Made by a program: the position numbers and the translations under genes. The notes beneath the pieces were generated by a model. It was not told the origin of the DNA. It saw nothing but the letters and a program-made list of their open reading frames with translations, and ran no database searches. Below, in pieces: positions 11,994 to 53,700 of a DNA stretch of 64,000 nt. Positions within the stretch are counted from its first letter, which is position 1. The number at the start of each line of letters is the position of its first letter. This DNA is from Candidatus Amesbacteria bacterium GW2011_GWB1_47_19 (GTDB taxonomy: Bacteria > Patescibacteriota > Microgenomatia > CAZETR01 > Amesbacteraceae): contig LCNZ01000002.1 in NCBI GenBank assembly GCA_001002325.1, positions 7,093 to 71,092 of the forward strand, read 5' to 3'.

Positions 11994-12017
11994 TGGTATT
12001 TACATGTATTATAAACT

Positions 12018-12899
12018 ATGTCTATGACTAAAAACCCTTGCGAAAACATCATTATTGGAGGAAATGGATTTATAGGAACATACATCACAGAACTATTAAC
12101 AAAATCGGGTAACAGTTCGAGGATTATAGATTCCCATGCTCATGCGGATTCACAAGCAGAACAGGTCGCTATTACTATCGGACCTGAATGTAACGATCAG
12201 GAATTAAAAAGCGCAATAGCCGGGAAAAGAATATTCATTCTCGTAGGTCAGATAAAACCTGATTTTAATGAAGATTATGAACTAGCCGCATTAAAGAAAC
12301 TATTCAGTTGCGTCGACTTCAAAATGACCAGACAAATTATCTACACATCTTCAGCCTTAATATACGGGGACACCAAAAAACCTGCAGTGGAAACAGACCC
12401 CATCAATCCGGTCGATTCATATAGTAGATTTAAATCAAAAAGTGAGGATTTATGTAAAATGTATTTTAATCAAAAAACCGGAATCAATTTGCTTATAACC
12501 AGATTAAGTAATGTCTATGGGGGTGTTAAAAACAGGGGATTTATCGGTTTAATAATAAATAAATCCAAGAATGAGATTAAGCCAACAATAGATATTAACG
12601 GAGATGGTAAACAAACCAGAGACTATATTCATGTAATTGATGTCGCAAACGCTATTTTATCAATTGCCGGAAACGAAGTGAATGACATTGTAAATGTGAG
12701 CTTCGGGATTAGCTGGTCACTCCTCGAAATAATTGATAAGTTTAATAATTTATCACCGAATAATATTCATACAAATATAAAAGGCAATTTATTAAATGAA
12801 GTGAAACAGAGCCGGATTTCCAATCAAAAATTGAGAGATATTTACGGATACACTCCTGCAATATCCCTGGATAGGGGGCTCGAGCTTAGTTTGCTTTAG
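12018..12899 (+). CDS. NAD-dependent epimerase/dehydratase (extended SDR)
   Basis: IIIGGNGFIGTYI Rossmann motif; YSRFK (YxxxK) catalytic dyad; first gene of the AT-rich block. Confidence 0.75.
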   Translation: MSMTKNPCENIIIGGNGFIGTYITELLTKSGNSSRIIDSHAHADSQAEQVAITIGPECNDQELKSAIAGKRIFILVGQIKPDFNEDYELAALKKLFSCVDFKMTRQIIYTSSALIYGDTKKPAVETDPINPVDSYSRFKSKSEDLCKMYFNQKTGINLLITRLSNVYGGVKNRGFIGLIINKSKNEIKPTIDINGDGKQTRDYIHVIDVANAILSIAGNEVNDIVNVSFGISWSLLEIIDKFNNLSPNNIHTNIKGNLLNEVKQSRISNQKLRDIYGYTPAISLDRGLELSLL

Positions 12900-12904
12900 C
12901 GTAT

Positions 12905-14326
12905 ATGATGAGAGACAAAATAAAAAAAGTAATAATCGTCGGTTGCGGTGCAGCAGGCCGTCTTTTATTACACGATATAGTACAAAATCATAAAACTATT
13001 TCATGTCTGGGTTATGTGGATGATCTGAAAAAAAGCAATAGTGTTCGTATTTTAGGTCCGATCAGGAATCTGGTTGAATTAGTGGAGAATTACCGGGTTG
13101 ATGAAATCTTAATAGCGGTACCTTCAAGTAATGGCAAACTGGTAAGGCGTGTTTTGCTGCAATTAATTTCAACTCGAATTCCTATAAAAATTGTTCCCAG
13201 AACCCAGATGGTTATTAAGACTGGTCTGGTCAGATATGCAGATTTAAGAGAGGCTGAGGCGCAGGACTTTTTGGGTCGTCCGTTTATTAAACATAATATT
13301 GAAAAACTTTCCGCCTGGTACAAGGATAAAGTGGTGCTTATAACCGGTGGAGCAGGTTCTATCGGTTCTGAAATAGTCAGACAGTTGATGGAGTTAGGTA
13401 CAAAAAAAGTTATAGTATACGACTTTTCTGAATATCTGATGTTTAATCTGGATCAGATGTTAAAAGACGTAGGAATGCGAGACAAGTGCGAATTGATCAT
13501 AGGAAACATTTTAAATGCAAATAAAGTATCCCAGATCTTTAAAAAAGATAAGCCCAATATTGTAATTCATGCAGCAGCATATAAACATGTCTATTTAATG
13601 GAAGACAATTTGGATGAGGCGATAATAAACAACATTCAGGGTACTAAAACAATCACGGATCTGGTAATTCAGAATCAAATTTCTAATTTTGTATTTATTT
13701 CGACAGACAAAGTAGTTAATGCCTCCAGCATCATGGGAGCTACCAAGAACTTATGCGAGCTTTATATCAGACATTCATACCACGGTCAAAAAAAGCTGAT
13801 ATTTAATATTGTTAGGTTTGGAAACGTGATAAATTCAAATGGATCAGTTTTACCGCTCTTCGAAAAGCAGATAAAGGAAAGGAGCGAAATCACTGTAACT
13901 GATAGAAAAGTAAAAAGGTTTTTTATGTCAACTAGAGAAGCTTCACAGCTGGTGATAGAAAGCACTGCTTGGGGGATAAAAAATTCAATACATGTTTTAG
14001 ATATGGGTGAATTATTAAGCATTTATGAAATTGCCTTATGCACTATCAGAAGCAGAAACCTAATTCCGGAGGTAGATGTCAAAATTAAGTTTATCGGTCT
14101 TCGGAAGGGAGAGAAAATGATCGAGGAGCTGTATACTAACCGGGAAAGAGGTAATTTAATTGACACAAAAATACCGCGTGTATTTGGGTTAGAGAAACTG
14201 GTGCTTCACAACAACAAAATCATTGCACTGGAAGAAGAACTGATAAATTTAGCCAGGAAATGCAACATTAAAGGAATAAAGCGAATATTGAATGAAGAAT
14301 TTCCCACACTTTCAAAGGCCCACTAG
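12905..14326 (+). CDS. Polysaccharide biosynthesis protein CapD/PglF/WbpM-like UDP-sugar 4,6-dehydratase (soluble form)
   Basis: N-terminal CoA-binding-like domain (KKVIIVGCGAAG...ILIAVPS), then VLITGGAGSIGSEI and HAAAYKHVYLMEDNLDEAIINNIQGT, characteristic of CapD/FlaA1/PglF. Confidence 0.8.
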   Translation: MMRDKIKKVIIVGCGAAGRLLLHDIVQNHKTISCLGYVDDLKKSNSVRILGPIRNLVELVENYRVDEILIAVPSSNGKLVRRVLLQLISTRIPIKIVPRTQMVIKTGLVRYADLREAEAQDFLGRPFIKHNIEKLSAWYKDKVVLITGGAGSIGSEIVRQLMELGTKKVIVYDFSEYLMFNLDQMLKDVGMRDKCELIIGNILNANKVSQIFKKDKPNIVIHAAAYKHVYLMEDNLDEAIINNIQGTKTITDLVIQNQISNFVFISTDKVVNASSIMGATKNLCELYIRHSYHGQKKLIFNIVRFGNVINSNGSVLPLFEKQIKERSEITVTDRKVKRFFMSTREASQLVIESTAWGIKNSIHVLDMGELLSIYEIALCTIRSRNLIPEVDVKIKFIGLRKGEKMIEELYTNRERGNLIDTKIPRVFGLEKLVLHNNKIIALEEELINLARKCNIKGIKRILNEEFPTLSKAH

Positions 14327-15793
14327 CTTAATAAGAATCGTTCCCCGATATTCCTGATTATCGTAGTTTTCGGTAGCCGGAATGACAAATATTTTCAACA
14401 CCCGGTAATTATTCATTAAATACGGATTTTTGATATTTTCTGGTGAATAAACCACCTCTTTCCAGTCACCTAATGAAAAATTGGCGTCATTTTCAAGATA
14501 ATTCGTTATAACTATATATTCAACATTATTAATCTTACCTGGATAAGGTTTTATCATTTCCGGCGCCAATGGAAACCACATTGTTGTTAAACCGTGATAC
14601 CAGGCAGCCCATGCATCAAGATTTGTGATGGTCAATTTTCCACGAGGAATATTTTGTGCCATTACGTCTGCAATTGCTTTATAGGCTGGAGGCTGATTTG
14701 TATTAAACTGTTGGCGACGATATCTTGAATCCAGTGTGATGTAACCGATCATTGGCAATGACACGATGAATATCAACAGACCAGCAAATAGATACTTTAA
14801 ACGTAGGTTTTTTGCCAATTCGACCAAGGATATTGCCGCACATATAAAAATCAATGGTAAAACGGGATGGACATACCTGGCAATGGGTAGGGTTAGGGAG
14901 GCGGCAATAATTAAAAGCAGACCACTTATTAAAGTATATATATAAAAACCCCGTAACTCTCGTTGTTTTATTAAGGCAAACACCCCGTACAAGAATAAAG
15001 CCAATATTATCGGATTAACGATTCGATCCGGAAATTTAAGAAAATTATACAAGTTGTATACTGTTTTAGCCGCTAGTTTCCTGGTAGTAATCCGGTCAGA
15101 TGGAGCGCCACGCATATAAGCTCCGTTGTTATCGCTGGGTGTGGAATAGATGGAATTAAAATAGAATGCAGGGGAAACGAATGGATATCTGCTGGAAAAT
15201 GGTATACCTGTCAGAATAATAATTCCGGCTACAGCCAGTACTAATAAGCGTCGGCGGGAAAATATTAATACCAGTATAAAAAGAGAAACCGCAATAACTA
15301 TGGATTGAGCTCTGGTAAAAAACATTAACGTTACCGGAACCAATGACAACCATTTTCGTTTTGGATTATAAAGATACAGAATAACCGCGAGTATTATTTC
15401 CAATGACAAGAATATTTCACTTGTGCTGTTTCTAGCATAATCCAGGAAGTACATATTTCCCAACAGAAAAACAACCGCAGTTATCCCTGCTTGGATAGAA
15501 TGTAGCTTTTTACCGATTAAATAGACCAAAACAGCTATCAACAACCAAACACCAACTCCAAAAATGACAACTGTAGAATCACTTAATGGAAATATCCGAA
15601 AAACTATCGACAACACCCAAGAGGTCAAAGGATGAAAACCGGGAGAAAACGCATCACCCGGAGTATACTTTGACAGAAGAACCGGATTGAAGAGACTATG
15701 GTGTATGACCAAACCGCGGCCGTAATTAAAATTTATTGCTGCTTCCGCATATTTTACCGAGTCTGAAAAACTTAACCAAAAATTAAACGTCAT
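14312..15793 (-). CDS. Polytopic membrane protein, putative GT-C glycosyltransferase
   Basis: About 12 hydrophobic helices over the N-terminal 360 aa; C-terminal about 120 aa soluble domain; no WWDYG. Convergent 15-bp overlap with the PglF-like gene. Confidence 0.5.
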   Translation of the reverse strand: MTFNFWLSFSDSVKYAEAAINFNYGRGLVIHHSLFNPVLLSKYTPGDAFSPGFHPLTSWVLSIVFRIFPLSDSTVVIFGVGVWLLIAVLVYLIGKKLHSIQAGITAVVFLLGNMYFLDYARNSTSEIFLSLEIILAVILYLYNPKRKWLSLVPVTLMFFTRAQSIVIAVSLFILVLIFSRRRLLVLAVAGIIILTGIPFSSRYPFVSPAFYFNSIYSTPSDNNGAYMRGAPSDRITTRKLAAKTVYNLYNFLKFPDRIVNPIILALFLYGVFALIKQRELRGFYIYTLISGLLLIIAASLTLPIARYVHPVLPLIFICAAISLVELAKNLRLKYLFAGLLIFIVSLPMIGYITLDSRYRRQQFNTNQPPAYKAIADVMAQNIPRGKLTITNLDAWAAWYHGLTTMWFPLAPEMIKPYPGKINNVEYIVITNYLENDANFSLGDWKEVVYSPENIKNPYLMNNYRVLKIFVIPATENYDNQEYRGTILIKLVGL

Positions 15794-15805
15794 AAAAAAA
15801 TCGAA

Positions 15806-17290
15806 ATGATAGCTTCAAAATACTTGATGATAACCTGTATCTGCCTAACTATAGTTTATTCTTTTTATTTTCTCAATAAAATTAAGTTGGATAATACGGC
15901 CTACTGGAGCGGGGATACTATAGTTTACCAGTCTATTGCAGTAAATTTAGCCACAGGTCATGGTTATAAATATGGAATCATAGAACCATTCGAGAAATAT
16001 AAGTTTGGAAAAGGTCTCTTCAATCCAAAAGCAGACTTAAAAGAGGAACTTACTGACTGGGGTAAAGAAGGTGGACATGATTATTTTTTTACTACCCCGG
16101 GTTACATTTTATTTCTGGGATCAATTTACAAAATATTCGGTATTAGCCCGTTTATAGCCAAAGTAATACAAAATATCTTCATGATCACCATAGGTTCTTT
16201 TTTACCCTTCATTGGCTATATTTTTTGGAAAAGATCAGGACTCGTAAGTGGGATCATATCCGGTTTTATCTATCTCAATCACTTTTTTAGCCTTGAGGCT
16301 CCAGGCTCGCTTGCTGTTGCTAATGAAATACTCACCGAGCCTTTGATCTCTTTTTATCTTTTCTTAATGATCATTGTGTTTATGTATTGGTCAATCAAAA
16401 AGTCTTTTATAACGACGTTTAGTTTTGGAGTCTTGCTTGGTATCGGTGTACTGGTCAAGGGATCAAATATATTTATTCCCCTTCTGTTCTTAACCTATTT
16501 CTTTATTCTTATTTTTATAAAAAGGAGTTTAAGTTTGGCACATCTTTCTGTATTATTGTCGGGAATTATTATTTCTATTTTGCCATGGTCTATATATGCC
16601 ACCAAATCTTCAGATCAATTAATCTTAATTTCCACCCAAAGCAAACCGGCACTATTTGACGGAAATAATGAATACACAGTTATCGACGGAGCTTGGCACC
16701 CGGAGGGATACATTGACAATCCAAATAGTTTTTATCGGCAACCATGGCTGCAAAAATATCCGGATTTAATAAAGGTTGCCATATTTTATTATTATCATCC
16801 CAGAATATTTTTGCCTGTATTTCTTAAAAAGTTATTTTATGCATACCGATTATTTCCTTTTTTTAAAATTTCATTGACTCTGATAATTAGTTCAATCCTA
16901 ATTAATTATTTCTTGAATAAAAAGTTCAAAATAGTCATGTTGATGATAACTTTGCTTTGTTTGATAAATATATTCATTTTTCCCTATCCGGTAACTGGCA
17001 TGCCATTTATGAGCCAAATCTCTACTAGTGGTTCCTTATTAACCGTTTTACTTACAGTAGCCATGCTATTAGCGTATCGCAAAAAAATTATTCACACCAT
17101 AGACATACCTGCACCTATGATAATAATATTCGTGAATTATTTACTGATTACCCTGATGATTTTCGGTTACCCTAGATATATTCAGGTTATGAATTTTGTA
17201 TTTATTCTTGTATCGGTTAAACTCCTCATGGATTTTATAAAAGAATTCTTTTCTACCTTTTATTCTGTTTTCTTTACATCAGATGGTTAA
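15806..17290 (+). CDS. Polytopic membrane protein, putative ArnT/PMT_2-like GT-C glycosyltransferase
   Basis: N-terminal TM then loop DTIVYQSIAVNLATGHGY (D..Y...A..L..G.GY pattern of PMT_2); many TM helices. Confidence 0.5.
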   Translation: MIASKYLMITCICLTIVYSFYFLNKIKLDNTAYWSGDTIVYQSIAVNLATGHGYKYGIIEPFEKYKFGKGLFNPKADLKEELTDWGKEGGHDYFFTTPGYILFLGSIYKIFGISPFIAKVIQNIFMITIGSFLPFIGYIFWKRSGLVSGIISGFIYLNHFFSLEAPGSLAVANEILTEPLISFYLFLMIIVFMYWSIKKSFITTFSFGVLLGIGVLVKGSNIFIPLLFLTYFFILIFIKRSLSLAHLSVLLSGIIISILPWSIYATKSSDQLILISTQSKPALFDGNNEYTVIDGAWHPEGYIDNPNSFYRQPWLQKYPDLIKVAIFYYYHPRIFLPVFLKKLFYAYRLFPFFKISLTLIISSILINYFLNKKFKIVMLMITLLCLINIFIFPYPVTGMPFMSQISTSGSLLTVLLTVAMLLAYRKKIIHTIDIPAPMIIIFVNYLLITLMIFGYPRYIQVMNFVFILVSVKLLMDFIKEFFSTFYSVFFTSDG

Positions 17291-18587
17291 ACCGAATAAA
17301 GAGCTGAAGAACTGGTACTACCACCGGGATTTAATAAATTATTATGCGTTTAACTTAACACCCCAATGTAGTATTTTAAACATTCACCATGGTAATGATA
17401 TTTTCCGCGATTCATTAAAATATAAGAATTATAAATCAGTTAACATTTCAAAAAAGTCAATATTTCCTGATAAAAAATTTGACTTTATTTTTATTTCTGA
17501 TTCTTTAAGTGTTGTCAGAGATATTCAGTCTTTGTTTCACAAGCTAAAGAAATGTTCTAGTCCCAACACCAGACTCATAGTCAATTATCATAATTATTTC
17601 TGGTTACCCTTTCTGAAAATAGCTGTGAAGCTTGGAATTAAAGACCCGCAAAAATATACGAATTGGTTAAATACTGACGACGTGATTAATTTGCTGTCTA
17701 TTGAGAATTATCAAATCATAAAAGTCGGGCAACGGTTATTGATACCGGTTTATATCCCGGTAATTTCTTATTTCATAAACAGGTATATTGCATATTTTCC
17801 GGTTATTAATAAATTATGTTTTACAAACTACCTTATTTCCCGGCCTGTAAATGATAATAAAATCTATGATCAAACCGTAAGCGTGATCATACCCGTCAGA
17901 AATGAGAGTGGGAATATTGAAAATACTATTAAGCGGCTTCCAAAGCTAGGTAAACACACAGAAATAATCTTTATAGAGGGTTATTCCTCTGACAATACCT
18001 GGGATAAAATTATCCGTGTTCAGAATAAGTACAAGAAATTGGATATAAAAGTCTTTAAACAGCAGGGTATAGGTAAGGCGGATGCTGTTCGACTTGGATT
18101 TATTAAAGCCAGAGGTAATATTCTAATGATTCTTGATGCAGATTTAACCGTACCTCCGGAAGAATTGACCAAATTTTATGAAGCTATTAATAAAGACAAA
18201 GGCGAATTCATTAATGGCTGTCGGTTGGTATATCCGGTGCAAAAAGAAGCAATGCAATTTCTTAACACAGTTGCCAACCACCTCTTCTCCACCATATTAT
18301 CATGGATATTGAATATAAAAATAAAAGATACACTATGTGGTACAAAAGTTATCTCAAAGAAGAACTATCTTCATATTGCCCGTAACCGTAAGTACTTTGG
18401 GGATTTTGATCCGTTCGGTGATTTTGATTTGATATTCGGAGCCGCGAAATTAAATCTGAAATATACTGAAATACCCATTCATTACCAATCACGTAAATAT
18501 GGACATACCAACATCTCCCGCTTCAAACATGGCTGGTTGTTACTGAAGATGACTATATTTGCACTATTCAAGTTAAAATTTGTCTAA
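17283..18587 (+). CDS. Dpm1/GtrB-like GT2 polyprenol-phosphate glycosyltransferase with about 190-aa N-terminal extra domain
   Basis: C-terminal half: VSVIIPVRNESGNI...IIFIEGYSSDNTWD...ILMILDADLTVPPEEL (GT2 DxD). N-terminal domain of unknown function (FDFIFISDSL...NTRLIV). Confidence 0.7.
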   Translation: MVKPNKELKNWYYHRDLINYYAFNLTPQCSILNIHHGNDIFRDSLKYKNYKSVNISKKSIFPDKKFDFIFISDSLSVVRDIQSLFHKLKKCSSPNTRLIVNYHNYFWLPFLKIAVKLGIKDPQKYTNWLNTDDVINLLSIENYQIIKVGQRLLIPVYIPVISYFINRYIAYFPVINKLCFTNYLISRPVNDNKIYDQTVSVIIPVRNESGNIENTIKRLPKLGKHTEIIFIEGYSSDNTWDKIIRVQNKYKKLDIKVFKQQGIGKADAVRLGFIKARGNILMILDADLTVPPEELTKFYEAINKDKGEFINGCRLVYPVQKEAMQFLNTVANHLFSTILSWILNIKIKDTLCGTKVISKKNYLHIARNRKYFGDFDPFGDFDLIFGAAKLNLKYTEIPIHYQSRKYGHTNISRFKHGWLLLKMTIFALFKLKFV

Positions 18588-19120
18588 TGCTGATCAATTT
18601 CTTAAAAAGATATTCATACAAACAAATCCTTCTTCTATTCATAGAAGACCACCTTCAGTTTCTCCTGGGTCCGTTACCGTCGTACGAAGGTATTATTGCC
18701 AGAAGACTCATGTACAAAATATTTCTCAAATTAGGTAAGGGGAGCATTATTTACCACCACGTAATATTCACTCACGGTTTTAATATCAAAATAGGTAATT
18801 ATTTTTCACCAAACTGCGGCACCCATATTGATGGTAGAGGAGGTGTGGAAATTGGCGATTATGTCCTGATCGGACCAAATGTTTTTATTGCTTCATCAAA
18901 CCATGTAGTCCGCACGAGAGAGCCCCGTATAAATTTTCCTCATATTCCCAAACCCACGTATATAGGTTCAAATGTCTGGATTGGGGCCAACACGGTTGTA
19001 TGTCCTGGGGTTAAGATTGGTGACAACAGTATTGTGGCCGCCGGTAGCATAGTAACAAAGGATGTAGCACACAACGTTATTGTTGCTGGAAATCCTGCCA
19101 GGGTAACACGGACTTTTTAG
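18587..19120 (+). CDS. Hexapeptide-repeat (left-handed beta-helix) sugar O-acetyltransferase
   Basis: Repeated [LIV]G..x..[LIV] hexapeptides: IGDYVLIGPNVFI...IGSNVWIGANTVVCPGVKIGDNSIVAAGSIV. Confidence 0.8.
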   Translation: MLINFLKRYSYKQILLLFIEDHLQFLLGPLPSYEGIIARRLMYKIFLKLGKGSIIYHHVIFTHGFNIKIGNYFSPNCGTHIDGRGGVEIGDYVLIGPNVFIASSNHVVRTREPRINFPHIPKPTYIGSNVWIGANTVVCPGVKIGDNSIVAAGSIVTKDVAHNVIVAGNPARVTRTF

Positions 19121-19121
19121 T

Positions 19122-20441: not shown

Positions 20442-20489
20442 CATCTTCTTAATATATAATGCAGCGTTAAAGAGAGCTTAATCAAAAAA

Positions 20490-23461: not shown

Positions 23462-23481
23462 AAAGAAGTATCCCTATAATA

Positions 23482-26185: not shown

Positions 26186-26187
26186 TT

Positions 26188-28182: not shown

Positions 28183-28195
28183 ACATAATGAGGAT

Positions 28196-38447: not shown

Positions 38448-38450
38448 TAT

Positions 38451-40345: not shown

Positions 40346-40352
40346 AATTAAT

Positions 40353-47218: not shown

Positions 47219-47248
47219 ATCAAACAGAGTAAATTATATATTAAATTA

Positions 47249-48016
47249 ATGAACAAAAACTTTTACAGGGTTAAATTGAGTTTACTTCAAAGATATCTTA
47301 TGGATTATGCGGTCAGCATATCAGATAAAAACGATGCAGTTCTTGATTATGGATGCGGGGGTGGTGAGATGGTAGGTGATGGCTTAAATAAAAAACTTAA
47401 TATCTTTGGAACGGATACGTTCTATGAAGGAGGTAAGTCAAAAGAACTGGCAATCAGTTTGGGTTTACTGGGAAAAAAAGTGTTTAGTATGAAAAGGAAC
47501 AGGATACCGTTTCCGGATCGCAGTTTCGATCTGGTGATCTGTAATCAAGTGTTTGAGCATGTAAAAGAACTAAACGTCGTGCTGAAGGAAATCAACAGAA
47601 TTTTAAAAACAGGGGGTATCTTATTGAGCGCTTTTCCCACGAAAGAATGTGTCTACGAAGGGCACTGCGGCATACCCATGATACACTGGTTTAATAAAGA
47701 ATCGAGGTTGAGATTTGGTTATGCTCTATTATTAAGAAAAATAGGTTTTGGATATTTTAAGGAAAATAAAAAACCTGAGCGATGGGTAATGGATTTCTTA
47801 AATTGGTTGGATAAATATACAACTTACAGAACCCGTAAGGAAATATTTAGCTTGTTACGACGATACTTTAGTCAAAACGTCTTAATAAAAGACCAGTTTT
47901 ATAAATCAGTCCTTAGGAGTAAAAACATCCACATATTTGACTTTATGTTTGAGTACAAGTTTTGTAAATGGTTAATTAATAATTGTGAGGAGTGTGTAGT
48001 CTTATCAAAGAAGTAA
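47249..48016 (+). CDS. Class I SAM-dependent methyltransferase
   Basis: VLDYGCGGGEMV motif I; DLVICNQVFEHV motif; about 255 aa. Confidence 0.7.
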   Translation: MNKNFYRVKLSLLQRYLMDYAVSISDKNDAVLDYGCGGGEMVGDGLNKKLNIFGTDTFYEGGKSKELAISLGLLGKKVFSMKRNRIPFPDRSFDLVICNQVFEHVKELNVVLKEINRILKTGGILLSAFPTKECVYEGHCGIPMIHWFNKESRLRFGYALLLRKIGFGYFKENKKPERWVMDFLNWLDKYTTYRTRKEIFSLLRRYFSQNVLIKDQFYKSVLRSKNIHIFDFMFEYKFCKWLINNCEECVVLSKK

Positions 48017-48039
48017 ATCTATGGAATTTAAAATAATTA

Positions 48040-48801
48040 TTATTTTCTGAGTACAACGTTAAAAGACAATATTGTTAAATCATCCCGGGTGTACGTGTTT
48101 AACAGATTATTATCTAAATCACCTTTATATCTCATAATACTACCCATCTTAATTATTTCCAGTCGATGATTGTCAAACAGGGACAGATAATTGCTATACC
48201 TTTTACGGTTTACGTAGACCCCCGTTTTTCCGCAAAGTAATTTAAACAAAAACTCAGGAAACTTCAAGAACATCAGGTTTTCATTGTCAATCAGATGATC
48301 TCTCAAATCAACTTGATGATTCATAAACCCCCCCTTTTTTAAAACCCTCATCATTTCCCTGAAACACAGTTCCAGATCGTGTACATGCTCAAGCACTGCA
48401 CAGGAATAGATTATATCAATAGAATCGTCCTTTAATGGATAGCCCGAATTTTGTCCTATCGATATAAACTCTATTTTTTCTTTGTGTTGATCGCCTGTTA
48501 CCCCCAAATGGTCTCCTTCATCCACAGCATAATACTTTTTCGCACCGTCTTTTATACAAAGCTGCCCAAATCCGATTGATCCACCAGGCCCCAATTCGAG
48601 GATGGTCTTATTTTCAATATTTGTGAATTTATTTATCACACTCCTGAAGGCGATATATTGCTTTTGGTTATACTCCACATGAGAAGATCCGAACCAGTAA
48701 GAATTGGTTATATATTTCTCGACAATAGTTCTCATCCCCGGGAAGAGTGAATAAGTGAGATTTTGGACCAATGTTAAGGGTATCTTAAGATAGATATTCA
48801 T
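48040..48801 (-). CDS. Class I SAM-dependent methyltransferase
   Basis: ILELGPGGSIGFG motif I; AVDEGD motif II; CAVLEHV. Confidence 0.7.
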   Translation of the reverse strand: MNIYLKIPLTLVQNLTYSLFPGMRTIVEKYITNSYWFGSSHVEYNQKQYIAFRSVINKFTNIENKTILELGPGGSIGFGQLCIKDGAKKYYAVDEGDHLGVTGDQHKEKIEFISIGQNSGYPLKDDSIDIIYSCAVLEHVHDLELCFREMMRVLKKGGFMNHQVDLRDHLIDNENLMFLKFPEFLFKLLCGKTGVYVNRKRYSNYLSLFDNHRLEIIKMGSIMRYKGDLDNNLLNTYTRDDLTILSFNVVLRK

Positions 48802-49943
48802 ACTAACGTTTTAATTAATAGGTTGTATTTATCGATACTATTCTGCCAGTTAAAATTAGCTTCGACAAATTTTTGTTGATCTTTTGAACTTGATAATTCT
48901 TTAATATTTTCACACATATCAACAATACCGGCTTTGATGGCAGCGGAACTGGACTCCTTAATTAGTATCCCAAAATTATTATCATTCAAAATTTCTTTTG
49001 CACCCTCACCGGGAGTTGCTACTATTCTGCATCCGCAATATATGGCTTCTAAAAGCGAAGTAGACAACCCCCCTCCACTAAAAGAGGAATGAATATAAAC
49101 GTCACTTATTTTTAGGAAAGAGATCACTTCTTGTCTGGTGATCTTACCTGTGAATAATACATAATTATCTGCAATATTTTTAAGCCGGTCCAAATCTTCC
49201 CCATCTCCCATTATTATAAAAATTATCCTCCTTTTTAATGGTTCTGACATTCCTTTTATAGCCTTAATGGTATTTTCGACTCCTTTCCATTTGTATAACC
49301 TCCCTGAAAATGAAAGAAGAATTTTTCCTTTATATTTTCTTCTGAAATAAATTCTCGGTTTAACTTTATTGATAAAACCAAAATTGATACCCCGATATAT
49401 CAGTGGGCTGGCTCTTTTATCAAACCGTTTAATAAAACTTTGAACCGCTTGAGATATTGAGACATTAATATCTGATGACGAAATCATTAATCTGCCCAAT
49501 GTTTCATCATATATTCTGGCTAATAAAGTACTGAATTGACTGCTTAACCTCACAAAATCCGACCCGTGTTCAATATGCATCCACTTGGTATTTTTAAGTT
49601 TCGAAAATAAGAAAGCCATGGGCGTAGTCACAAAAAACCTTGTTCTGGAAATTACTACATCGAATTTTTGTTGAAATAAAGTCATGAACAATTGCCAAAA
49701 CCTCAACGACCATAATTTGGGTAAAGGATAGTTCGGAATAATTTCAAAAGCCGGAAACCTGAATACTTTTACATTTTTATACCTGTTCTCGATCTCCTTA
49801 GCATCAATAGGTATCCGTGGTGTGAAGACGCTAATTTCGTATCCCAATCGCGCTAAATGATAATTAAATTCGTCTGCATGATTTTCTAATCCGCCAATAT
49901 GAGGCGGATAGTAAGGAGAGAAAACTAAAATTTTCATACCCAA
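48798..49943 (-). CDS. GT4-family glycosyltransferase
   Basis: MKILVFSPYYPPHIGGLENH N-terminus; C-terminal E-x7-E region. Confidence 0.8.
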   Translation of the reverse strand: MGMKILVFSPYYPPHIGGLENHADEFNYHLARLGYEISVFTPRIPIDAKEIENRYKNVKVFRFPAFEIIPNYPLPKLWSLRFWQLFMTLFQQKFDVVISRTRFFVTTPMAFLFSKLKNTKWMHIEHGSDFVRLSSQFSTLLARIYDETLGRLMISSSDINVSISQAVQSFIKRFDKRASPLIYRGINFGFINKVKPRIYFRRKYKGKILLSFSGRLYKWKGVENTIKAIKGMSEPLKRRIIFIIMGDGEDLDRLKNIADNYVLFTGKITRQEVISFLKISDVYIHSSFSGGGLSTSLLEAIYCGCRIVATPGEGAKEILNDNNFGILIKESSSAAIKAGIVDMCENIKELSSSKDQQKFVEANFNWQNSIDKYNLLIKTLV

Positions 49944-49945
49944 CT

Positions 49946-50290
49946 TTATCGCCGATGAGTCTTTTTATCTGATCCTTTGATAGCTTCCTGTCGAACAAAG
50001 TCTGAAAATTTCTTCTTAATCTGTTGATTATCTACGTAATTTTTATAAGAGGTTATCCAAAGCGCAACGAATGACAAAACCATTATCAAATCCATTACTC
50101 TGACAACCCCCAAACGATACGTAATCTTTTCTAATAAATCTGGAAATAGTATTGACGCTAGAAAGAAAAGCCATATTAATGACCACACAATCAACTCGTT
50201 CACAAAAATTATTCTCTTCTTATATACAAGAAATACCCAAAACAACATGTACAGTCCAAAACAAAACAACCCCAACTGAAAAATTACCAT
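49946..50290 (-). CDS. Small 3-TM membrane protein (DUF2304-like partner of Dpm1-type GT2)
   Basis: 114 aa, three hydrophobic helices; immediately downstream of and overlapping the Dpm1-like GT2 at 50284-50958. Confidence 0.55.
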   Translation of the reverse strand: MVIFQLGLFCFGLYMLFWVFLVYKKRIIFVNELIVWSLIWLFFLASILFPDLLEKITYRLGVVRVMDLIMVLSFVALWITSYKNYVDNQQIKKKFSDFVRQEAIKGSDKKTHRR

Positions 50291-50958
50291 TTTAATCTAA
50301 GTTTCCACAAAAATAACTCACCGACCAATTTTATGCCGTCTTGAATCGTAATTCCAGTTGCAGAACGTTTATCAAGATATATCGCATCTATTAGCAGCTC
50401 CTGACATCGTAATTTATTAATACCTGCATGAACGACCATTTCAATATCCGAAGAGTAATCTGAAGCCTTCCAACTTATCTTAGAATACACTTTTGATTGA
50501 AATGCCTTATAACCGCACGCCACATCTCTCAGTCTCAAACCAAACAAGCCGCTGGTGAATCTGCTTAAAACTCGATTAAAAATTAGCCGGCCGAATGGCA
50601 TTCCTTTATGCATTCTCCTGGCGCCGAAAATCATTTGATTACCTTGATCCAGCAAGCGAATAAATTGGGGGATTTCTTTAGGATCATGCTGGCCGTCCGC
50701 ATCCATCAGAATAATTGACTTAGCACCGGATTTAATGGCCAATTCGCACCCCGTTTTTAAAGCCATTCCCTTTCCTAAATTAACCCGGTGCCGGGCAACC
50801 ATAATGGCAGGTGGTAAAAATTTTTCGATAGGAAATTTGGAACCGTCATCAACCACAATCACCCGATTCAGTGGGTGATATGATTTTAATTTTCGTATCG
50901 TTAGCGGTAGATGCCGTTCTTCGTTATATGCCGGAATAACTATGTAAATATTTTTCAT
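50284..50958 (-). CDS. Dpm1-like GT2 polyprenol-phosphate glycosyltransferase
   Basis: IYIVIPAYNEERHL...VIVVDDGSKF...IILMDADGQHDP, about 224 aa with no TM. Confidence 0.8.
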   Translation of the reverse strand: MKNIYIVIPAYNEERHLPLTIRKLKSYHPLNRVIVVDDGSKFPIEKFLPPAIMVARHRVNLGKGMALKTGCELAIKSGAKSIILMDADGQHDPKEIPQFIRLLDQGNQMIFGARRMHKGMPFGRLIFNRVLSRFTSGLFGLRLRDVACGYKAFQSKVYSKISWKASDYSSDIEMVVHAGINKLRCQELLIDAIYLDKRSATGITIQDGIKLVGELFLWKLRLKW

Positions 50959-51037
50959 TTCGAGCCTCGATAATATTGTATTATAGTAATAGTTTATTAA
51001 AAAAGCAGACTCAATAAATAAAGACTATCATTTAATT

Positions 51038-51643
51038 ATGACCCCTAGCTCGTTTACAAAAAAATACTTCGATGATATCAGCCTCATATTATCTCAAATA
51101 GACAAATCTGTACTGGACAAACTGGTTGATCTATTGTGGGAAATTTACATTGAGCGAAAACACATGTTTTTTATCGGAAATGGCGGTAGTGCCAGTCTGT
51201 CTTCCCACTTAGCTGCTGATCTGGGTAAAAACACCATCTCTCATTCATCAACCGTTCCCCGATTCCAAACGCAGTCATTAACAGACAATGTTGCATGGAT
51301 TACAGCATTGGCCAATGATTTAAAATACCGGGATATTTTTGTCGAACAATTGAAAAACTTAAGCAATCCCGGCGATTTATTATTCGTTATCAGCGGCAGC
51401 GGAAACAGCCCTAACTTGGTACAGGCTGTAAAATGGGCGCGATTAAACAAAATTAAGACCGTTGGTTTATTGGGTTTTGATGGAGGTAAACTTAAAAATC
51501 TGGTTAAGTTTATGGTATTAGTGCCATCATTGAGTTATGAGTATGTGGAAGGTGTCCACGCAGTGATTGCCCACTACTTGGTTGCTTCATTAAAGTTTAG
51601 ATTTAACCGGCGTCTTTCCACTATTACCTCCAATAAGATCTGA
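51038..51643 (+). CDS. SIS-domain phosphoheptose isomerase-like protein (second GmhA-like copy)
   Basis: MFFIGNGGSASLSSHLAADL...LLFVISGSGNS...VGLLGFDGGKLK...VEGVHAVIAHYL. Confidence 0.7.
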   Translation: MTPSSFTKKYFDDISLILSQIDKSVLDKLVDLLWEIYIERKHMFFIGNGGSASLSSHLAADLGKNTISHSSTVPRFQTQSLTDNVAWITALANDLKYRDIFVEQLKNLSNPGDLLFVISGSGNSPNLVQAVKWARLNKIKTVGLLGFDGGKLKNLVKFMVLVPSLSYEYVEGVHAVIAHYLVASLKFRFNRRLSTITSNKI

Positions 51644-52566
51644 TCAATAGGAGTCTCCGGGACAAAACCGATTGATTTAATAAGTTTTTTGACACTCGGA
51701 ACTCTCCTCGACATATCATTGAATCCTTTCTCAAATACTTTGGCAAAAGGGACAAGCTTAATCCTGGATCGGGAACCGGTTAGGTGTTTGATCTTTTTAG
51801 CCAGTGTCAGAATGGATATTTCCTGAGTTGATCCGATGTTAAATACTTTTCCGATAGCATATTCATTTTCAGTCAGAGCAGAGAGCGCGTTAACCGCATC
51901 CTTAACAAAAGCAAAACACCGGGTCTGAGAGCCATCTCCATACACTGTCAATGGTTTACCGGATAATGCCTGTTCCACCAGTCTGGGAATTACCATTCCG
52001 TACGTCCCAACTTGTCGCGGACCGACGGTATTAAATATTCTGGCAATTATCACCGGTAGTTTCTTTTCCTGGAAATATCCCATCGTAAGAAATTCATCAA
52101 CAATTTTCGTAGCGGCATATCCCCACCTTCTGATGTGTGTCGGACCGATTATTCGGTTATCATCCTCTTCAAACGGGACCTTATTGCTCATGCCGTAAGT
52201 TTCCGAAGTCGAAGCCACCATCACCCTGATATTCTTAAGCTTCGCAGCTTCTTCCAGTACATTTCCTGTACCTTCCACATTTACCACAATTGATTCAATC
52301 GGTTTGTCCACCACCAGTTGTGCTCCTACCACTGCGGCCAGATGGATTACCCAGTCGGCTCCTCTCATTGCACTTACTAAGTCCGGCCGTTTCAGAATAT
52401 CCCCCTTAAAAAACTTGAACCTGTTTTTATTCGCCAGAGTTGATAAATTACTCAGTCTTCCGGTTGATAAATTATCCAGGATTGTTACGTAGTGACCTTT
52501 TTCGTGTAATAATTCTGCCAGATGACTTCCGATAAATCCGGCACCTCCGGTAATCAGGTAATGCAT
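51574..52566 (-). CDS. NAD-dependent epimerase/dehydratase (extended SDR)
   Basis: MHYLITGGAGFIGSHLA; YAATK (YxxxK). Start trimmed to Met47 of the track ORF, whose N-terminal 46 aa are low-complexity and overlap the divergent gene. Confidence 0.7.
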   Translation of the reverse strand: MHYLITGGAGFIGSHLAELLHEKGHYVTILDNLSTGRLSNLSTLANKNRFKFFKGDILKRPDLVSAMRGADWVIHLAAVVGAQLVVDKPIESIVVNVEGTGNVLEEAAKLKNIRVMVASTSETYGMSNKVPFEEDDNRIIGPTHIRRWGYAATKIVDEFLTMGYFQEKKLPVIIARIFNTVGPRQVGTYGMVIPRLVEQALSGKPLTVYGDGSQTRCFAFVKDAVNALSALTENEYAIGKVFNIGSTQEISILTLAKKIKHLTGSRSRIKLVPFAKVFEKGFNDMSRRVPSVKKLIKSIGFVPETPIDQILLEVIVERRRLNLNFNEATK

Positions 52567-53700
52567 ACGATTTCCAAGATTAGCATAATTTTTCCCAAAA
52601 TTCTGAACTGGCTGATTCTGGGATTGATCGGAATTTCCTTGATCATTTTTATTATCTCCCATAGGAGAGTATATTCCACGGTTTACGATACCCGTTTTTG
52701 GCAAAATGAATTCCCAAAAACCCAGCTGGTGATCGGTGATAAAGCGGACAGATTTTATTCCGATACAGAGTTATACGCGATTTTAGGATACAAATACGCT
52801 CTGGGCCAGAATCCCGTAACCATGCATCCCGAAGTTCCTCCCTTGGGTAAGCAAATTATCGGCGCCGGAATTATTCTTTTTAGAAATCAAAATCTGGCCA
52901 GCCTGCTTTTGGGTTTGGGGGGACTGTCTTTGTTGTATTTGATCGGCCTTAAAGTTTCGCCCTCCCGGACTGTAGTCTTACTGACCGTCCTGCTGGTATC
53001 CTTGGACCGGGTATTTCACACTTTGATATCCGACTCTTATATTGATACTCCCCAGTTATTCCTTTTTCTGCTCTCTTTGTATCTATTCTTGAGCTCACTA
53101 ACCAATCAGCGACGGTTTATCTTGGCAAGTCTATCGCTGGGATTGATGATGGCTACAAAGTTTTATTTTAACGGTTTACTGTTGCTGGCTGTTTATCTGA
53201 TCTATCTCACATTGCAAAGGAATTTTCGGATTTTTATGGGCTTCACACTTTCGCTGCCGGCTGTCGCTATAGGATATCTGCTACCCTACACGTATTCTTT
53301 CATTACCGGTTTCGGACTTACGGACTGGATTCGGCTCCAGCGCTGGATGACTTCCTGGTGGGCGGGTAATGCCCGCGTTCCCTGGGGAGGTATTTTTTCT
53401 ATCATCTTTACCGGTAATTGGCATACCTGGTGGGGTAATCGGGATATTATTGCGGTAGGGGAGTGGACCCCCCTCTGGCCTCTGGCTGCTGTTCTCGGTT
53501 TCATTTCAATTTTTCAGATTATTAAAAACAGAAATTACCCCGGTTTATTGTTATGGCTCTGGTGTATTTTTTACCTGCTGTTTCTCTCCGTCACCTCACC
53601 CTTCCCCCGTTATCTGATTCTTCTTATGCCTTTTCTGTATCTGCTCACTCTGGATTTTATCCGGCAGCTATTTTCTAGGCTGAATAAAACAAAGACATGA
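52561..53700 (+). CDS. Polytopic membrane protein, putative GT-C glycosyltransferase
   Basis: About 10 TM helices; loop DTELYAILGYKYALGQNP. The ATG at 52561 sits back-to-back with the minus-strand ATG of the epimerase (ATGCAT); the start could be further upstream. Confidence 0.55.
   Translation: MHTISKISIIFPKILNWLILGLIGISLIIFIISHRRVYSTVYDTRFWQNEFPKTQLVIGDKADRFYSDTELYAILGYKYALGQNPVTMHPEVPPLGKQIIGAGIILFRNQNLASLLLGLGGLSLLYLIGLKVSPSRTVVLLTVLLVSLDRVFHTLISDSYIDTPQLFLFLLSLYLFLSSLTNQRRFILASLSLGLMMATKFYFNGLLLLAVYLIYLTLQRNFRIFMGFTLSLPAVAIGYLLPYTYSFITGFGLTDWIRLQRWMTSWWAGNARVPWGGIFSIIFTGNWHTWWGNRDIIAVGEWTPLWPLAAVLGFISIFQIIKNRNYPGLLLWLWCIFYLLFLSVTSPFPRYLILLMPFLYLLTLDFIRQLFSRLNKTKT

Follow-up and report, generated by a model that had tools for sequence, protein, structure and literature searches.

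Between two conserved glycan modules of Candidatus Amesbacteria GW2011_GWB1_47_19, a groundwater Microgenomates (CPR) bin, lies a block of about 40 kb that is rich in AT and carries sugar-activation, glycosyltransferase (GT) and tailoring genes, raising the question of how such a block came to sit there. The 64-kb stretch that we analyzed, called the window, lies wholly within a single glycan supercluster of at least 80 kb, which extends past it by ~9 kb on the left and 6.7 kb on the right. The AT-rich block, called the island, looks like species-specific cargo that was horizontally assembled.

Base composition changes at both edges of the island

The initial annotation had proposed from inspection by eye that GC content steps at ~12.0 and ~52.5 kb, and computed profiles confirmed that the block is real, with change points at ~11,925 and ~51,875. 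Mean GC was 46.75% over positions 1-11993, 36.95% over 12018-52600 and 46.91% over 52600-64000, and in 1-kb intervals the flanks ran at 0.40-0.50 and the interior at 0.30-0.48; the ranges read by eye (22-45% against 47-52%) were qualitatively right but slightly overstated the contrast. A two-change-point likelihood fit placed the boundaries at 11,920 and 51,869, gaining ~308 nats over a homogeneous model. Independent recursive segmentation divided the window into 1-11925 (GC 0.468), 11926-20550 (0.350), 20551-34775 (0.402), 34776-51875 (0.349) and 51876-64000 (0.468).

The left boundary is sharp and falls less than 100 bp from the gene junction at 11993/12018, where the annotation had put it. 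The right boundary, put at 52,560-52,600, does exist as a step, but it is more gradual and lies ~700 bp further left, with the change point (~51,870) inside a gene on the - strand (51574-52662) for a short-chain (SDR) dehydratase/epimerase resembling LegB and UDP-xylose synthase. At a transitional GC of 0.42, this gene marks the island's gradual right edge, and the corresponding gene junction lies at 52,662/52,729. The flanks match the genome's GC (~47%, estimated from bin names and ~39 kb of flanking sequence): bins of the same species are tagged '47' for GC in their names, Amesbacteria bins are tagged 42-48, and a GC of 0.45-0.51 persists past both window ends, for ~9 kb on the left and ~6.7 kb on the right.

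Codon usage and tetranucleotides, which the annotation had proposed as further checks, also separated the island from its surroundings. Per-gene GC3 values did not overlap, spanning 0.29-0.43 in the listed island genes and 0.48-0.55 in the 18 real flank genes (Mann-Whitney p = 3.6e-8). All three codon positions were shifted (GC1/GC2/GC3: flanks 0.50/0.40/0.49, island 0.42/0.34/0.36), the share of FYMINK amino acids rose from 0.28 to 0.36, and the deficit held within the GT2, GT4, methyltransferase, Wzx and PMT families. Since the three positions move together and the family-matched comparisons hold, the deficit is not an artefact of protein type. In GC-normalized tetranucleotide signatures, the two flanks correlate at 0.845 across the 40-kb gap, whereas chunks of the island correlate with one another at only 0.68.

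Because the sequence comes from metagenome-assembled genomes, a contig of a 37%-GC organism might have been joined into a 47%-GC scaffold during assembly or binning. This we consider practically negligible: both junctions recur with at least 99.97% identity in assemblies that were produced independently, from different samples and with different assemblers (ENA scaffolds, two NCBI MAGs, megahit k141 contigs, Logan contigs and JGI), and both flanks share one composition and signature. The exact 669-aa protein of the island occurs in 45 collection blocks, compared with 36 and 34 for flank proteins, and the exact island kinase occurs in 21 contigs.

Conserved glycosyltransferase modules frame the island

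Module A (450-11993, GC 0.468, per-gene GC3 0.48-0.53), defined by Pfam matches, has all of its genes on the + strand: five tandem GT-C paralogues of the PMT/PMT_2 type (450-8570), a NUDIX gene (8572-8991), a GT2 (8978-9778), a GT4 (9775-10845) and a PIG-V/Gpi18-like GT-C (10842-11993). Its gene order is kept at 40-73% amino acid identity in sister Amesbacteria and other Microgenomates, with synteny in 43 of the 43 Microgenomates species compared. Module B (52729-63238), likewise defined by Pfam matches and also at the genome's GC (0.468), lies on the + strand except for one GT2, and reads PMT_2, Wzx, an amine-oxidase-family flavoprotein, a second Wzx, GT2, methyltransferase, GT2 (- strand), GT4, GT2 and PMT_2. 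Past the window end it continues with two GT4 genes, a hexapeptide transferase, Wzy_C and PMT_2. The order of module B recurs at 38-65% amino acid identity in Amesbacteria clean1528 (L109) and in L111. Genes change strand 11 times within the island, compared with 0 and 2 times in its flanks.

The island is a mosaic of glycan genes

Three GC segments, 11 strand switches, mixed tetranucleotide signatures and an internal scar that contains a gene fragment and repeats show the island to be a mosaic, made up of at least three segments and not one acquired unit. Every assignable gene is glycan-related. Nucleotide-sugar and tailoring genes, by which the annotation had characterized the content, are present but share the block with seven genes of the GT2/GT4 families, one for a GT-C, one for a Wzx flippase and two for polytopic membrane proteins without a family. 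Segments were delimited by composition and their genes assigned by Pfam and NCBIfam matches.

Segment 1 (11926-20550, GC 0.350) encodes an SDR epimerase (12018-12899), a UDP-sugar 4,6-dehydratase resembling PglF and PseB (12905-14326), a PMT_2-type GT-C (14312-15793, - strand), a protein without a family and with an estimated 8 transmembrane segments (TM; 15806-17290), a methyltransferase-GT2 fusion (17283-18587), a hexapeptide acyltransferase (18587-19120) and a Wzx flippase (19122-20441).

Segment 2 (20551-34775, GC 0.402) holds nucleotide-sugar pathway genes. Following an IMPase-family gene (20490-21320), a heptose-type activation cassette recognized by NCBIfam matches (21495-27447) has a GmhB-like phosphatase on the + strand and, on the - strand, an FSA/transaldolase, a GmhA-like SIS isomerase, a GFO/IDH/MocA oxidoreductase, an HddA-like GHMP kinase, an RmlA/HddC-like nucleotidyltransferase and an SDR epimerase. 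The best NCBIfam matches are of the right families for the GDP-D-glycero-alpha-D-manno-heptose pathway, and the product is a putative heptose-type sugar: scores fall below the equivalog cut-offs for GmhA (88 vs 209), HddA (151 vs 600) and GmhB (PRK08942, 126 vs 178), the nucleotidyltransferase matches RmlA best (198 vs 361) and HddC at only 41 vs 300, and only HAD-IIIA and histidinol-phosphatase-domain models pass. Beyond the cassette, an SDR gene at 27298-28182 is followed by one for an NDP-sugar dehydrogenase at 28151-29476 and by a degenerate NTP-transferase-like ORF (29482-30198, - strand); further on lie another IMPase-family gene (32075-32992, - strand, GC 0.475), HxlB (32994-33629) and Rpe (33657-34358); the dehydrogenase, HxlB and Rpe score above the curated NCBIfam cut-offs.

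Within this segment, a scar zone (29482-32074) contains two ORFs without a confident family and non-coding gaps of 376 bp and 780 bp. It carries a direct repeat of ~72 nt (31294-31363 and 31766-31837, 89-91% identical). Positions 31817-31969 (+ strand) hold an inverted and diverged piece of the ORF at 30575-31294 (239 aa, - strand), which they match by tblastn with 39% identity over 51 aa (E = 1e-9).

Segment 3 (34776-51875, GC 0.349) opens with a nucleotidyltransferase-kinase fusion (34355-35923) and a KdsC-like phosphatase (35916-36443), and continues with an FkbM methyltransferase, a 376-aa protein without a family, GT2, GT4 and a methyltransferase. Next come a 669-aa protein without a family and with an estimated 13 TM (41181-43190, - strand, GC 0.305), and a sub-cassette on the - strand (43190-49943) in the order GT4, methyltransferase, AsnB (an EPS-type amidotransferase), methyltransferase and GT4, into which a methyltransferase gene on the + strand (47249-48016) is inserted. 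The order of the sub-cassette recurs in metagenome locus L105 at 40-58% amino acid identity, there at a GC of 0.41-0.47 beside neighbors of 0.51-0.55, and in part in L107 (GT4 53%, AsnB 64%) on a contig of 32% GC. The segment closes with a pair on the - strand assigned by Pfam (49946-50958), a GT2 (224 aa, GC 0.40) and a DUF2304 protein (114 aa, 3 TM, GC 0.33), and with a GmhA-like SIS gene (51038-51643) ahead of the SDR gene at the right edge.

The GT2-DUF2304 pair is inverted and relocated relative to sister species, in which it lies on the + strand directly 3' of the PIG-V-like gene. Its two proteins share only 39-42% and 29-38% identity with those of the sister pairs, compared with 55-73% for module A.

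Different genes occupy the position in related species

Sister loci were read as sequence spanning 10 kb on each side of anchor genes, so that island genes could lie elsewhere in those genomes. The annotation had proposed a check for presence/absence polymorphism among sister genomes, and we found conserved, syntenic flanks with cargo absent or different in the relatives examined, where gene content past the PIG-V-like gene varies. In Amesbacteria L037 and L047, module B genes begin 0.3-1.5 kb past module A and thus leave no island between them; L047 has its own block of 0.30-0.36 GC, with other genes, a few kb beyond. In Amesbacteria clean1528 the modules are ~32 kb apart with different genes between, and both sampled edges of the intervening stretch have a GC of 0.38-0.47 vs 0.51-0.57 in the modules. 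Counting clean1528 (L109), the cargo is different in L019, L021, L031 and L040/L109, and it is non-glycan in L023.

Within the sampled population, by contrast with the differences between species, the island is fixed. Eight independent assemblies covering 14.4-35.5 kb of the window, some in part, were 99.5-100% identical, both junctions were present in every assembly examined, and no strain polymorphism of the serotype kind appeared among these eight, which sample a single aquifer population. The idea of a horizontally acquired variable region is therefore supported between species, but the annotation's further suggestion of a rapidly exchanging, serotype-determining locus finds no support in these near-identical assemblies of one population.

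We infer, with a probability of roughly 0.7, that the island is variable cargo, specific to this species, of a cell-envelope glycan locus that is very large (at least 80 kb), and that this cargo was assembled piecemeal from a low-GC pool. Modules A and B would have been inherited vertically at the genome's GC and would frame the cargo, with different relatives carrying different gene sets at or beside the A/B junction. The pool would consist of lower-GC glycan cassettes common to CPR and other bacteria, and assembly would have proceeded by homologous or illegitimate recombination rather than by a self-mobile element. The cargo would supply activated rare sugars (heptose-type, HxlB/Rpe keto-sugar-phosphate, and the products of the NDP-sugar dehydrogenase and the PglF/PseB-like 4,6-dehydratase), along with seven GT2/GT4 enzymes, a GT-C and a Wzx flippase. 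Tailoring would fall to six methyltransferases that stand alone, a methyltransferase-like domain in the GT2 fusion, an acyltransferase and an EPS-type amidotransferase. The cargo could thereby set the composition and decoration of a glycan that the conserved GT-C machinery would install outside the membrane.

Homologues of island genes also appear to be distributed non-vertically. The heptose cassette recurs in the distant Microgenomates locus L043 at 57-75% amino acid identity vs 29-48% for the module A genes there, although the higher identity could reflect slower evolution of soluble enzymes than of polytopic GT-Cs. Database matches to the PIG-V-like gene of the flank formed a graded series (69, 58, 55 ... 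45%), its named members being Amesbacteria or other Patescibacteria. The PglF-like gene, the one island enzyme covered by the closest-relative search, gave a self-match followed by a drop to a plateau of 53-61%; its named matches are Moranbacteria, Saccharimonadales and Patescibacteria, with no Amesbacteria among the named best matches, a contrast that rests on few labels since ~10% of database matches carry organism names. The best non-self relatives are only 53-64% identical, indicating that any transfer is old.

The island could instead be ancestral to Amesbacteria, with sister species having lost or replaced it. In several relatives a GT2-DUF2304-epimerase trio and a methyltransferase-GT2 fusion akin to island genes lie just past module A, suggesting that the ancestor had a variable region at that position. 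We regard differential loss as improbable: a block resident since antiquity would be expected to have reached 47% GC by amelioration, identity in the shared genes is only 27-52% where module A of those sister species has 55-73%, and none of the named best matches of the PglF-like gene is from Amesbacteria.

A somewhat stronger competitor, though still unlikely, holds that native genes were driven to low GC in place, by relaxed selection with AT-biased mutation or by selection for AT-rich, poorly translated or silenced genes; composition would then say nothing about origin. Of the 43 species, 32 have a lower GC on the downstream side of the PIG-V-like gene than on its upstream side, and 10 have a higher one (Wilcoxon p = 3e-4), with a drop of at least 0.05 in 7 species and a rise of that size in none. 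This recurrent dip beside module A could have a common selective or mutational cause in place of low-GC donors, and, like the below-neighbor GC of the AsnB cassette in L105, it suggests a systematic bias of the gene class. In Salmonella the lowest GC content, that of wzx and wzy, likewise 'needs explanation' (PMC3715488). The island's GC3 of 0.36 is also above the expectation for a genome of ~35% GC. Against change in place, the GT2, GT4, methyltransferase, Wzx and PMT_2 genes in the flanks of the same locus sit at the genome's GC, the cargo is missing from the syntenic position in sister species, which have other genes there, and the shift extends to GC1, GC2 and amino acid composition in an island of heterogeneous signature.

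The sharp left boundary and atypical composition would also fit the insertion of a self-mobile element (an integrative element, a prophage or an island borne on a transposon) into the glycan locus, but we consider this very improbable, as all genes that could be assigned are glycan-related. Pfam detected no integrase, transposase, relaxase or phage domain in any ORF of at least 150 aa (unknown ORFs at E <= 1), the 64-kb window has no tRNA, no direct or inverted repeat pair brackets 11.9 kb and 51.9-52.7 kb, and the boundaries show no recombination scar. This lack of marks at the boundaries also counts against the acquisition proposed above. Scans of viral contigs returned only a 43% match to the kinase and none to the 669-aa protein. 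The absence of integrase or transposase, tRNA and flanking direct repeats rules against a classical mobile genomic island. What the island shares with tRNA-associated islands, ICEs and prophages is a sharp compositional step and foreign-looking codon usage; unlike them, it has no att-like repeats or transfer genes, and it continues the function of the surrounding locus.

The island resembles variable O-antigen and capsule loci

The island looks like the CPR counterpart of variable O-antigen and capsule loci, a familiar kind of locus in an unfamiliar organism. Like the variable regions of surface-polysaccharide loci that are low in GC and exchanged laterally, it has a GC below that of the genome and a fixed position that holds unrelated cargo. 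In Salmonella O-antigen clusters, GC is lowest in GT, wzx and wzy genes and takes intermediate values in those of the sugar pathways (PMC3715488). The island shares with enterobacterial rfb clusters (between galF and gnd) a below-genome GC in segments of differing GC, this same ranking of GT and wzx genes below nucleotide-sugar genes, and a content of NDP-sugar genes, GTs and a flippase bordered by conserved genes, where related taxa have unrelated cargo. Like the island, rfb clusters carry no mobility genes of their own, and they are read as lateral acquisitions from low-GC sources (PMC3715488). The island differs in its size (40 kb vs ~10-20 kb, within a locus of at least 80 kb), in flanks of GT-C arrays (PMT_2 or PIG-V-like) where rfb has housekeeping genes, and in the lack of intraspecies serotype polymorphism in the sampled population. 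To our knowledge, LPS has not been demonstrated in a CPR host. Pfam and NCBIfam scans detected no Wzy or Wzz domain in the island, and module B carries a Wzy_C gene outside the window; the 8-TM and 13-TM proteins are candidates for a Wzy/Wzz-type role.

Capsule loci, including Streptococcus pneumoniae cps (dexB-aliA), Klebsiella K loci and Campylobacter jejuni CPS (kps modules), combine conserved modules with a serotype-specific, variable, low-GC center, and that of C. jejuni carries cassettes for GDP-heptose (GmhA/HddA/GmhB/HddC) alongside methyltransferases and tailoring genes of the amidotransferase type. The window has the same arrangement of conserved module, variable low-GC cargo and conserved module, and its cargo resembles that of C. 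jejuni. Capsule loci, however, vary between strains of one species, whereas variation of the island is documented between species, and their ABC/kps or Wzy-dependent export and assembly contrasts with the GT-C-rich machinery here. For this uncultured organism, the product is a putative exposed, antigenically variable surface glycan.

As a further lead only, the GT2 (~220 aa) and DUF2304 protein (~114 aa) beside many GT-Cs recall the logic of mycobacterial PpgS (Rv3631), Rv3632 and the GT-C Rv3779, which are a polyprenyl-phosphate-sugar synthase, its small membrane partner and an extracytoplasmic GT-C. The island pair is probably a polyprenyl-phosphate-sugar synthase with a small membrane partner, and the analogy suggests that lipid-phosphate-sugar donors may feed glycosylation outside the membrane.

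An AT-rich island between GC-richer flanks

GC content per 1 kb ran at 0.40-0.50 over window positions 1-12,000, 0.30-0.48 over 12,001-52,000 and 0.44-0.50 after ~52,000; the stretches 1-11993, 12018-52600 and 52600-64000 averaged 46.75%, 36.95% and 46.91%. With two change points, a likelihood search placed the steps at 11,920 and 51,869, gaining ~308 nats over a single composition, and recursive segmentation returned five segments: 1-11925 (GC 0.468), 11926-20550 (0.350), 20551-34775 (0.402), 34776-51875 (0.349) and 51876-64000 (0.468). Per-gene GC at third codon positions (GC3) was 0.29-0.43 in the AT-rich block, hereafter the island, versus 0.48-0.55 in 18 real flank genes (Mann-Whitney p = 3.6e-8). 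The GC profile, likelihood change points, segmentation and GC3 thus confirm the AT-rich island with a step change at both ends that the initial annotation had described. Its claim that the edges coincide with gene boundaries held on the left, where a sharp edge falls no more than 100 bp from the gene junction 11993/12018, but not on the right. There the edge is gradual, spread over a transitional dehydratase gene (51574-52662, GC 0.42), so that the statistical step falls inside this gene, ~700 bp left of the proposed 52,560-52,600.

We rejected the possibility that the island was joined in by assembly as a chimera, which we consider vanishingly improbable, because both junctions recur at identities of at least 99.97% in assemblies from different samples and assemblers. 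Collection blocks with island proteins were also as numerous as those with flank proteins. Exact window proteins were present on a 276-kb Rifle aquifer scaffold and in the MAGs GCA_001773795.1 and GCA_003488165.1 (lineage Patescibacteria, Microgenomates, Amesiibacteriota), and one island protein was 100% identical to a protein of bin RIFOXYB1_FULL_47_13. The protein at the left junction matched one of Candidatus Amesbacteria bacterium GW2011_GWB1_47_19 at 100% identity. The penultimate number in such bin names, which we take by convention to be the bin GC%, was 42-48 for Amesbacteria bins, and GC remained 0.45-0.51 past both window ends (~9 kb left, ~6.7 kb right). With genome GC inferred from bin names and ~39 kb of flanking sequence, the flanks match the genome, from which the island deviates. 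Genes past both window ends are still of glycan type (GT2, PMT_2, GT4, hexapeptide transferase, Wzy_C), and the contiguous glycan locus is therefore at least 79.7 kb long.

From flanks to island, GC at codon positions 1, 2 and 3 fell from 0.50/0.40/0.49 to 0.42/0.34/0.36, the share of FYMINK residues rose from 0.28 to 0.36, and codon preference flipped for Leu (CTG to TTA), Arg (CGG/CGC to AGA) and Ala (GCC to GCT/GCA). A family-matched comparison found the GC drop within the GT2, GT4, methyltransferase, Wzx and PMT families as well, so it is not an effect of protein class, and we rejected the explanation that low GC merely reflects membrane-protein or glycosyltransferase (GT) composition. GC-normalised tetranucleotide correlation was 0.84 among flank chunks (left versus right 0.845), 0.68 among island chunks and 0.715 between flank and island, indicating that both flanks belong together and that the island is internally heterogeneous. 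Codon-usage and tetranucleotide analysis, which the initial annotation had named as checks, both set the island apart from the flanks. The coding strand switches 11 times in the island, versus 0 and 2 times in the flanks. Within the island, GC was ~0.38-0.43 in sugar-pathway genes and 0.30-0.37 in genes for GTs, methyltransferases, Wzx and membrane proteins without a family, the same ordering of gene classes as in Salmonella O-antigen clusters (PMC3715488).

Two genes stood out from their surroundings. An IMPase-family gene (32075-32992) has a GC of 0.475 within the 37%-GC island and encodes a Gly/Ala/Arg-rich protein; its reading as a native gene dividing two islands was unsupported, as its GC3 of 0.42 is island-like and positions 1 and 2 of its codons account for the high GC. 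A NUDIX hydrolase gene (8572-8991, 139 aa) has an island-like GC of 0.357 inside the 47%-GC left flank. It is also found in Microgenomates Gr01-1014_16 (L023), is absent in the sister species at loci L019 and L021, and looks like a small independent insertion.

Gene content of the locus

All assignable ORFs of the 64 kb were glycan-related by Pfam and NCBIfam. The left flank, module A (450-11993, forward strand), carries five tandem GT-C (PMT/PMT_2-like) paralogues, the NUDIX gene, GT2, GT4 and a PIG-V/Gpi18-like GT-C (10842-11993) that forms the junction with the island. The right flank, module B (from 52729 past the window end), encodes PMT_2, Wzx, an amine-oxidase-family flavoprotein, a second Wzx, GT2, a methyltransferase, GT2, GT4, GT2 and PMT_2. 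The two Wzx-family flippases bracket the FAD flavoprotein (53697-57479 for the three genes together), and the flavoprotein had no match to the UDP-galactopyranose mutase (GLF) domain.

The first island genes encode an SDR epimerase, a PglF/PseB-like 4,6-dehydratase, a GT-C, an 8-TM protein without a family, a methyltransferase-GT2 fusion, a hexapeptide acyltransferase and Wzx. A heptose-type cassette follows (GmhB-like, FSA/transaldolase, GmhA-like, GFO oxidoreductase, HddA-like kinase, RmlA/HddC-like nucleotidyltransferase, epimerase), whose enzymes matched the expected NCBIfam families at scores below the equivalog cut-offs, and then an SDR and an NDP-sugar dehydrogenase. A second sugar-phosphate set (32075-36443) comprises the IMPase-family phosphatase, HxlB (6-phospho-3-hexuloisomerase), Rpe (ribulose-phosphate/allulose-6-P 3-epimerase), a 522-aa protein in which a nucleotidyltransferase (N-terminal) is fused to an APH-like kinase (C-terminal), and a KdsC-like phosphatase. 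HxlB and Rpe both scored above the NCBIfam cut-off, and the set may lead to an as yet uncharacterised keto-sugar or rare sugar in nucleotide-activated form. The last part holds GT2, GT4, methyltransferase and FkbM genes, a 13-TM protein without a family and an EPS-type AsnB amidotransferase, then a GT2-DUF2304 pair, a GmhA-like SIS protein and an SDR dehydratase. The nucleotide-sugar and tailoring genes originally ascribed to the island are thus both present, but that description is too narrow: the island also carries its own GTs and a flippase, making it a near-complete glycan unit.

The two proteins without a Pfam family (15806-17290 and 41181-43190, with ~8 and ~13 predicted TM segments) are candidates for Wzy-like polymerases or for novel enzymes of the GT-C type. 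The gene for the second, a 669-aa protein, is the most AT-rich of the window (GC 0.305).

Relatives carry other genes at the junction

Homologues of the junction gene showed graded identity (69, 58, 55 ... 45%), and the few named ones belonged to Amesbacteria or other Patescibacteria. In three sister genomes, whose loci were viewed in 10-kb stretches, module A was syntenic at 42-73% amino acid identity and synteny stopped directly after the PIG-V-like gene. What follows is GT2-DUF2304-epimerase-GT2s in the first (GC 0.43-0.46), GT2-DUF2304-GT2-methyltransferase and further genes in the second (0.40-0.44 versus 0.46-0.53 upstream), and non-glycan MFS and TPR genes in the third.

Scanning species-representative genomes by alignment of the junction gene gave 80 loci, 43 of which had enough flank to compare. 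Module A was present in all 43, and the downstream genes were unlike those of the window in the relatives examined. GC was lower downstream than upstream of the PIG-V-like gene in 32 of the 43 and higher in 10 (Wilcoxon p = 3e-4); drops of at least 0.05 occurred in seven loci and rises of that size in none. The Amesbacteria loci L037 and L047 have genes of module B (flavoprotein 47-51%, Wzx 39%) 0.3-1.5 kb after the PIG-V-like gene; module B directly follows module A, and the island is therefore absent. Locus L047 has its own abrupt block of GC 0.30-0.36 with other genes ~4 kb further on. In the Amesbacteria genome clean1528, one contig carries both the PIG-V-like gene (end at 60,554) and the flavoprotein gene (start at 92,632), leaving 32 kb between the modules; both sampled edges of this stretch have a GC of 0.38-0.47 versus 0.51-0.57 in the modules, and its genes are unlike those of the window. 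Module B gene order is kept in L109 and L111 at 38-65% identity. We regard L037/L047, clean1528, and module B in L109/L111 as the three decisive cases. The comparison with sister genomes that had been suggested initially thus finds the island missing from some and other genes in its place in another. That the island is ancestral and was lost in the sister species appears quite unlikely.

Further observations concern the modules themselves. The flavoprotein-Wzx pair is kept at 38-58% in L047, L109, L111 and partly L037, and the upstream Wzx is also found in L111. Sharp low-GC blocks with unrelated genes lie beside a conserved module in other species: L047 15000-21131 (GC 0.30-0.36 from 0.45-0.51), L051 14000-21107 (0.22-0.30 from 0.37-0.39) and L031 12000-21110 (0.31-0.39 from 0.44-0.48).

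Origin of the island genes

The island PglF-like enzyme had a self-match followed by a flat plateau at 53-61%, in which the few named homologues came from Moranbacteria, Saccharimonadales and generic Patescibacteria; no close Amesbacteria relative was found among database homologues. The distant locus L043 carries the heptose cassette downstream of module A at 57-75% identity, versus only 29-48% for module A genes. A GT4-methyltransferase-AsnB-methyltransferase-GT4 sub-cassette is syntenic in L105 (GC 0.41-0.47 versus 0.51-0.55 in its neighbours), with a 61.6% PglF-like gene nearby, and part of it occurs on contig L107, which has a GC of 32% (AsnB 64%). Judged by identity, every relative examined is too distant to have been a recent donor.

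We favor, at a probability of roughly 70%, a model in which the island is species-specific cargo of a conserved two-module glycan locus. Cassettes would have been gathered piecemeal from a lower-GC shared pool, and recombination at or near the A/B junction would insert or replace them. The cargo would provide activated forms of rare sugars together with GTs, a flippase and enzymes for decoration; the GT2-DUF2304 pair, a predicted lipid-phosphate-sugar synthase, may feed the conserved GT-C machinery; and the cargo enzymes would define the glycan that this machinery installs outside the membrane. AT enrichment in situ, or selection, is a considerably less probable source of the composition and would be compatible with the cargo model, since the shared cassette pool may itself be AT-rich for systematic reasons.

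A mobile element is very improbable and was rejected: no tRNA gene was found, no repeat pair brackets the island in a boundary repeat search, and no integrase, transposase or phage domain occurs anywhere in the window, including ORFs without a family scanned at E <= 1. Scans of viral contigs gave only a 43% kinase match and none for the 669-aa protein. The island failed every test for a classical tRNA/integrase island. Like variable polysaccharide loci, it has a low GC, glycan genes and a fixed position at which relatives carry unrelated cargo; no Wzy or Wzz domain was recognised within it, and intraspecies polymorphism was not seen in the available sample. Over 14.4-35.5 kb, eight assemblies (some with partial cover) were 99.5-100% identical to the window, and strain-level presence/absence was looked for but not found in the available assemblies, which represent one aquifer population. 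Apparent gene-call variants (L010, L014, L016, L017) came down to a few indels or SNPs, the sequence being otherwise 98.8-100% identical. The island is fixed in the sampled aquifer population, and rapid exchange is therefore not demonstrated; of the annotation's "horizontally acquired or rapidly exchanging", acquisition is the best-supported model.

Relation to known polysaccharide loci

Among known systems, the closest are the O-antigen clusters located between galF and gnd, along with capsule loci in which conserved modules surround a variable center. The C. jejuni CPS, which carries heptose cassettes, methyltransferases and amidotransferases, is a particularly close functional analogue; the island product is a putative surface antigen. 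The phenomenon itself is unsurprising, since polysaccharide clusters of low GC that are exchanged laterally are textbook knowledge in enterobacteria, streptococci and Campylobacter. The notable points are mainly the CPR host, the island size and a hot-spot architecture conserved across Microgenomates, and literature searches on Amesbacteria/Patescibacteria glycan islands found no prior description.

A reduced-genome CPR bacterium gives at least 80 kb to one glycan locus, built as a scaffold common to Microgenomates with a defined site for species-specific cargo. Tentatively, the A/B junction of a conserved two-module GT-C scaffold might be a recombination hot spot across Microgenomates, receiving species-specific AT-rich cargo from a pan-CPR cassette pool and allowing serotype-like surface diversification in ultra-small, probably host-attached bacteria. 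If so, the cargo would be a determinant of host or phage specificity, and the diversification system would take a sizeable share of a CPR genome, typically ~1 Mb. If surface glycans mediate CPR attachment to hosts or phage recognition, that specificity would evolve at this hot spot. Modules A and B are ready anchors for surveying cargo diversity in metagenomes, and the uncharacterised sugar-activation cassettes (HxlB, Rpe, kinase-nucleotidyltransferase fusion, KdsC-like phosphatase) may yield unusual activated sugars.

Additional features of the island and module A

A scar zone lies mid-island (29482-32074), with a degenerate NTP-transferase-like ORF, a 239-aa ORF without a known family and non-coding gaps of 376 bp and 780 bp. 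It contains a direct repeat of ~72 nt (31294-31363 and 31766-31837, ~89-91% identical) and an inverted fragment (31817-31969) with 39% identity to residues 85-133 of the 239-aa ORF (E = 1e-9). In L010, L014 and L016, from the same population, small indels (e.g. ~60-100 bp) break the TAL, HAD, IMPase and Wzx frames. Contigs carrying the exact HddA-like protein are mostly short, a hint that the island is micro-heterogeneous or was difficult to assemble at 20-30 kb.

In the module A operon (L019-L104), the tandem GT-C (PMT/PMT_2-like) paralogues, each of ~530-550 aa, number four to seven (window array 450-8570) and are followed by GT2, GT4 and the PIG-V-like GT-C; the operon is common to Amesbacteria, Woesebacteria, Shapirobacteria, Chisholmbacteria, Daviesbacteria, Collierbacteria and Blackburnbacteria. 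Each paralogue (a-e) has its own orthologue, indicating that the duplications are ancient. Many of loci L031-L104 come from TPA metagenome bins titled 'uncultured Gammaproteobacteria' or 'Pseudomonadales', one from 'Clostridia bacterium SMAG_U14141' and one from 'Bathyarchaeia archaeon SMAG_U14161'. Since every one of these has a GT-C array and PIG-V-like block of Microgenomates type, the titles are probably taxonomic mislabels.
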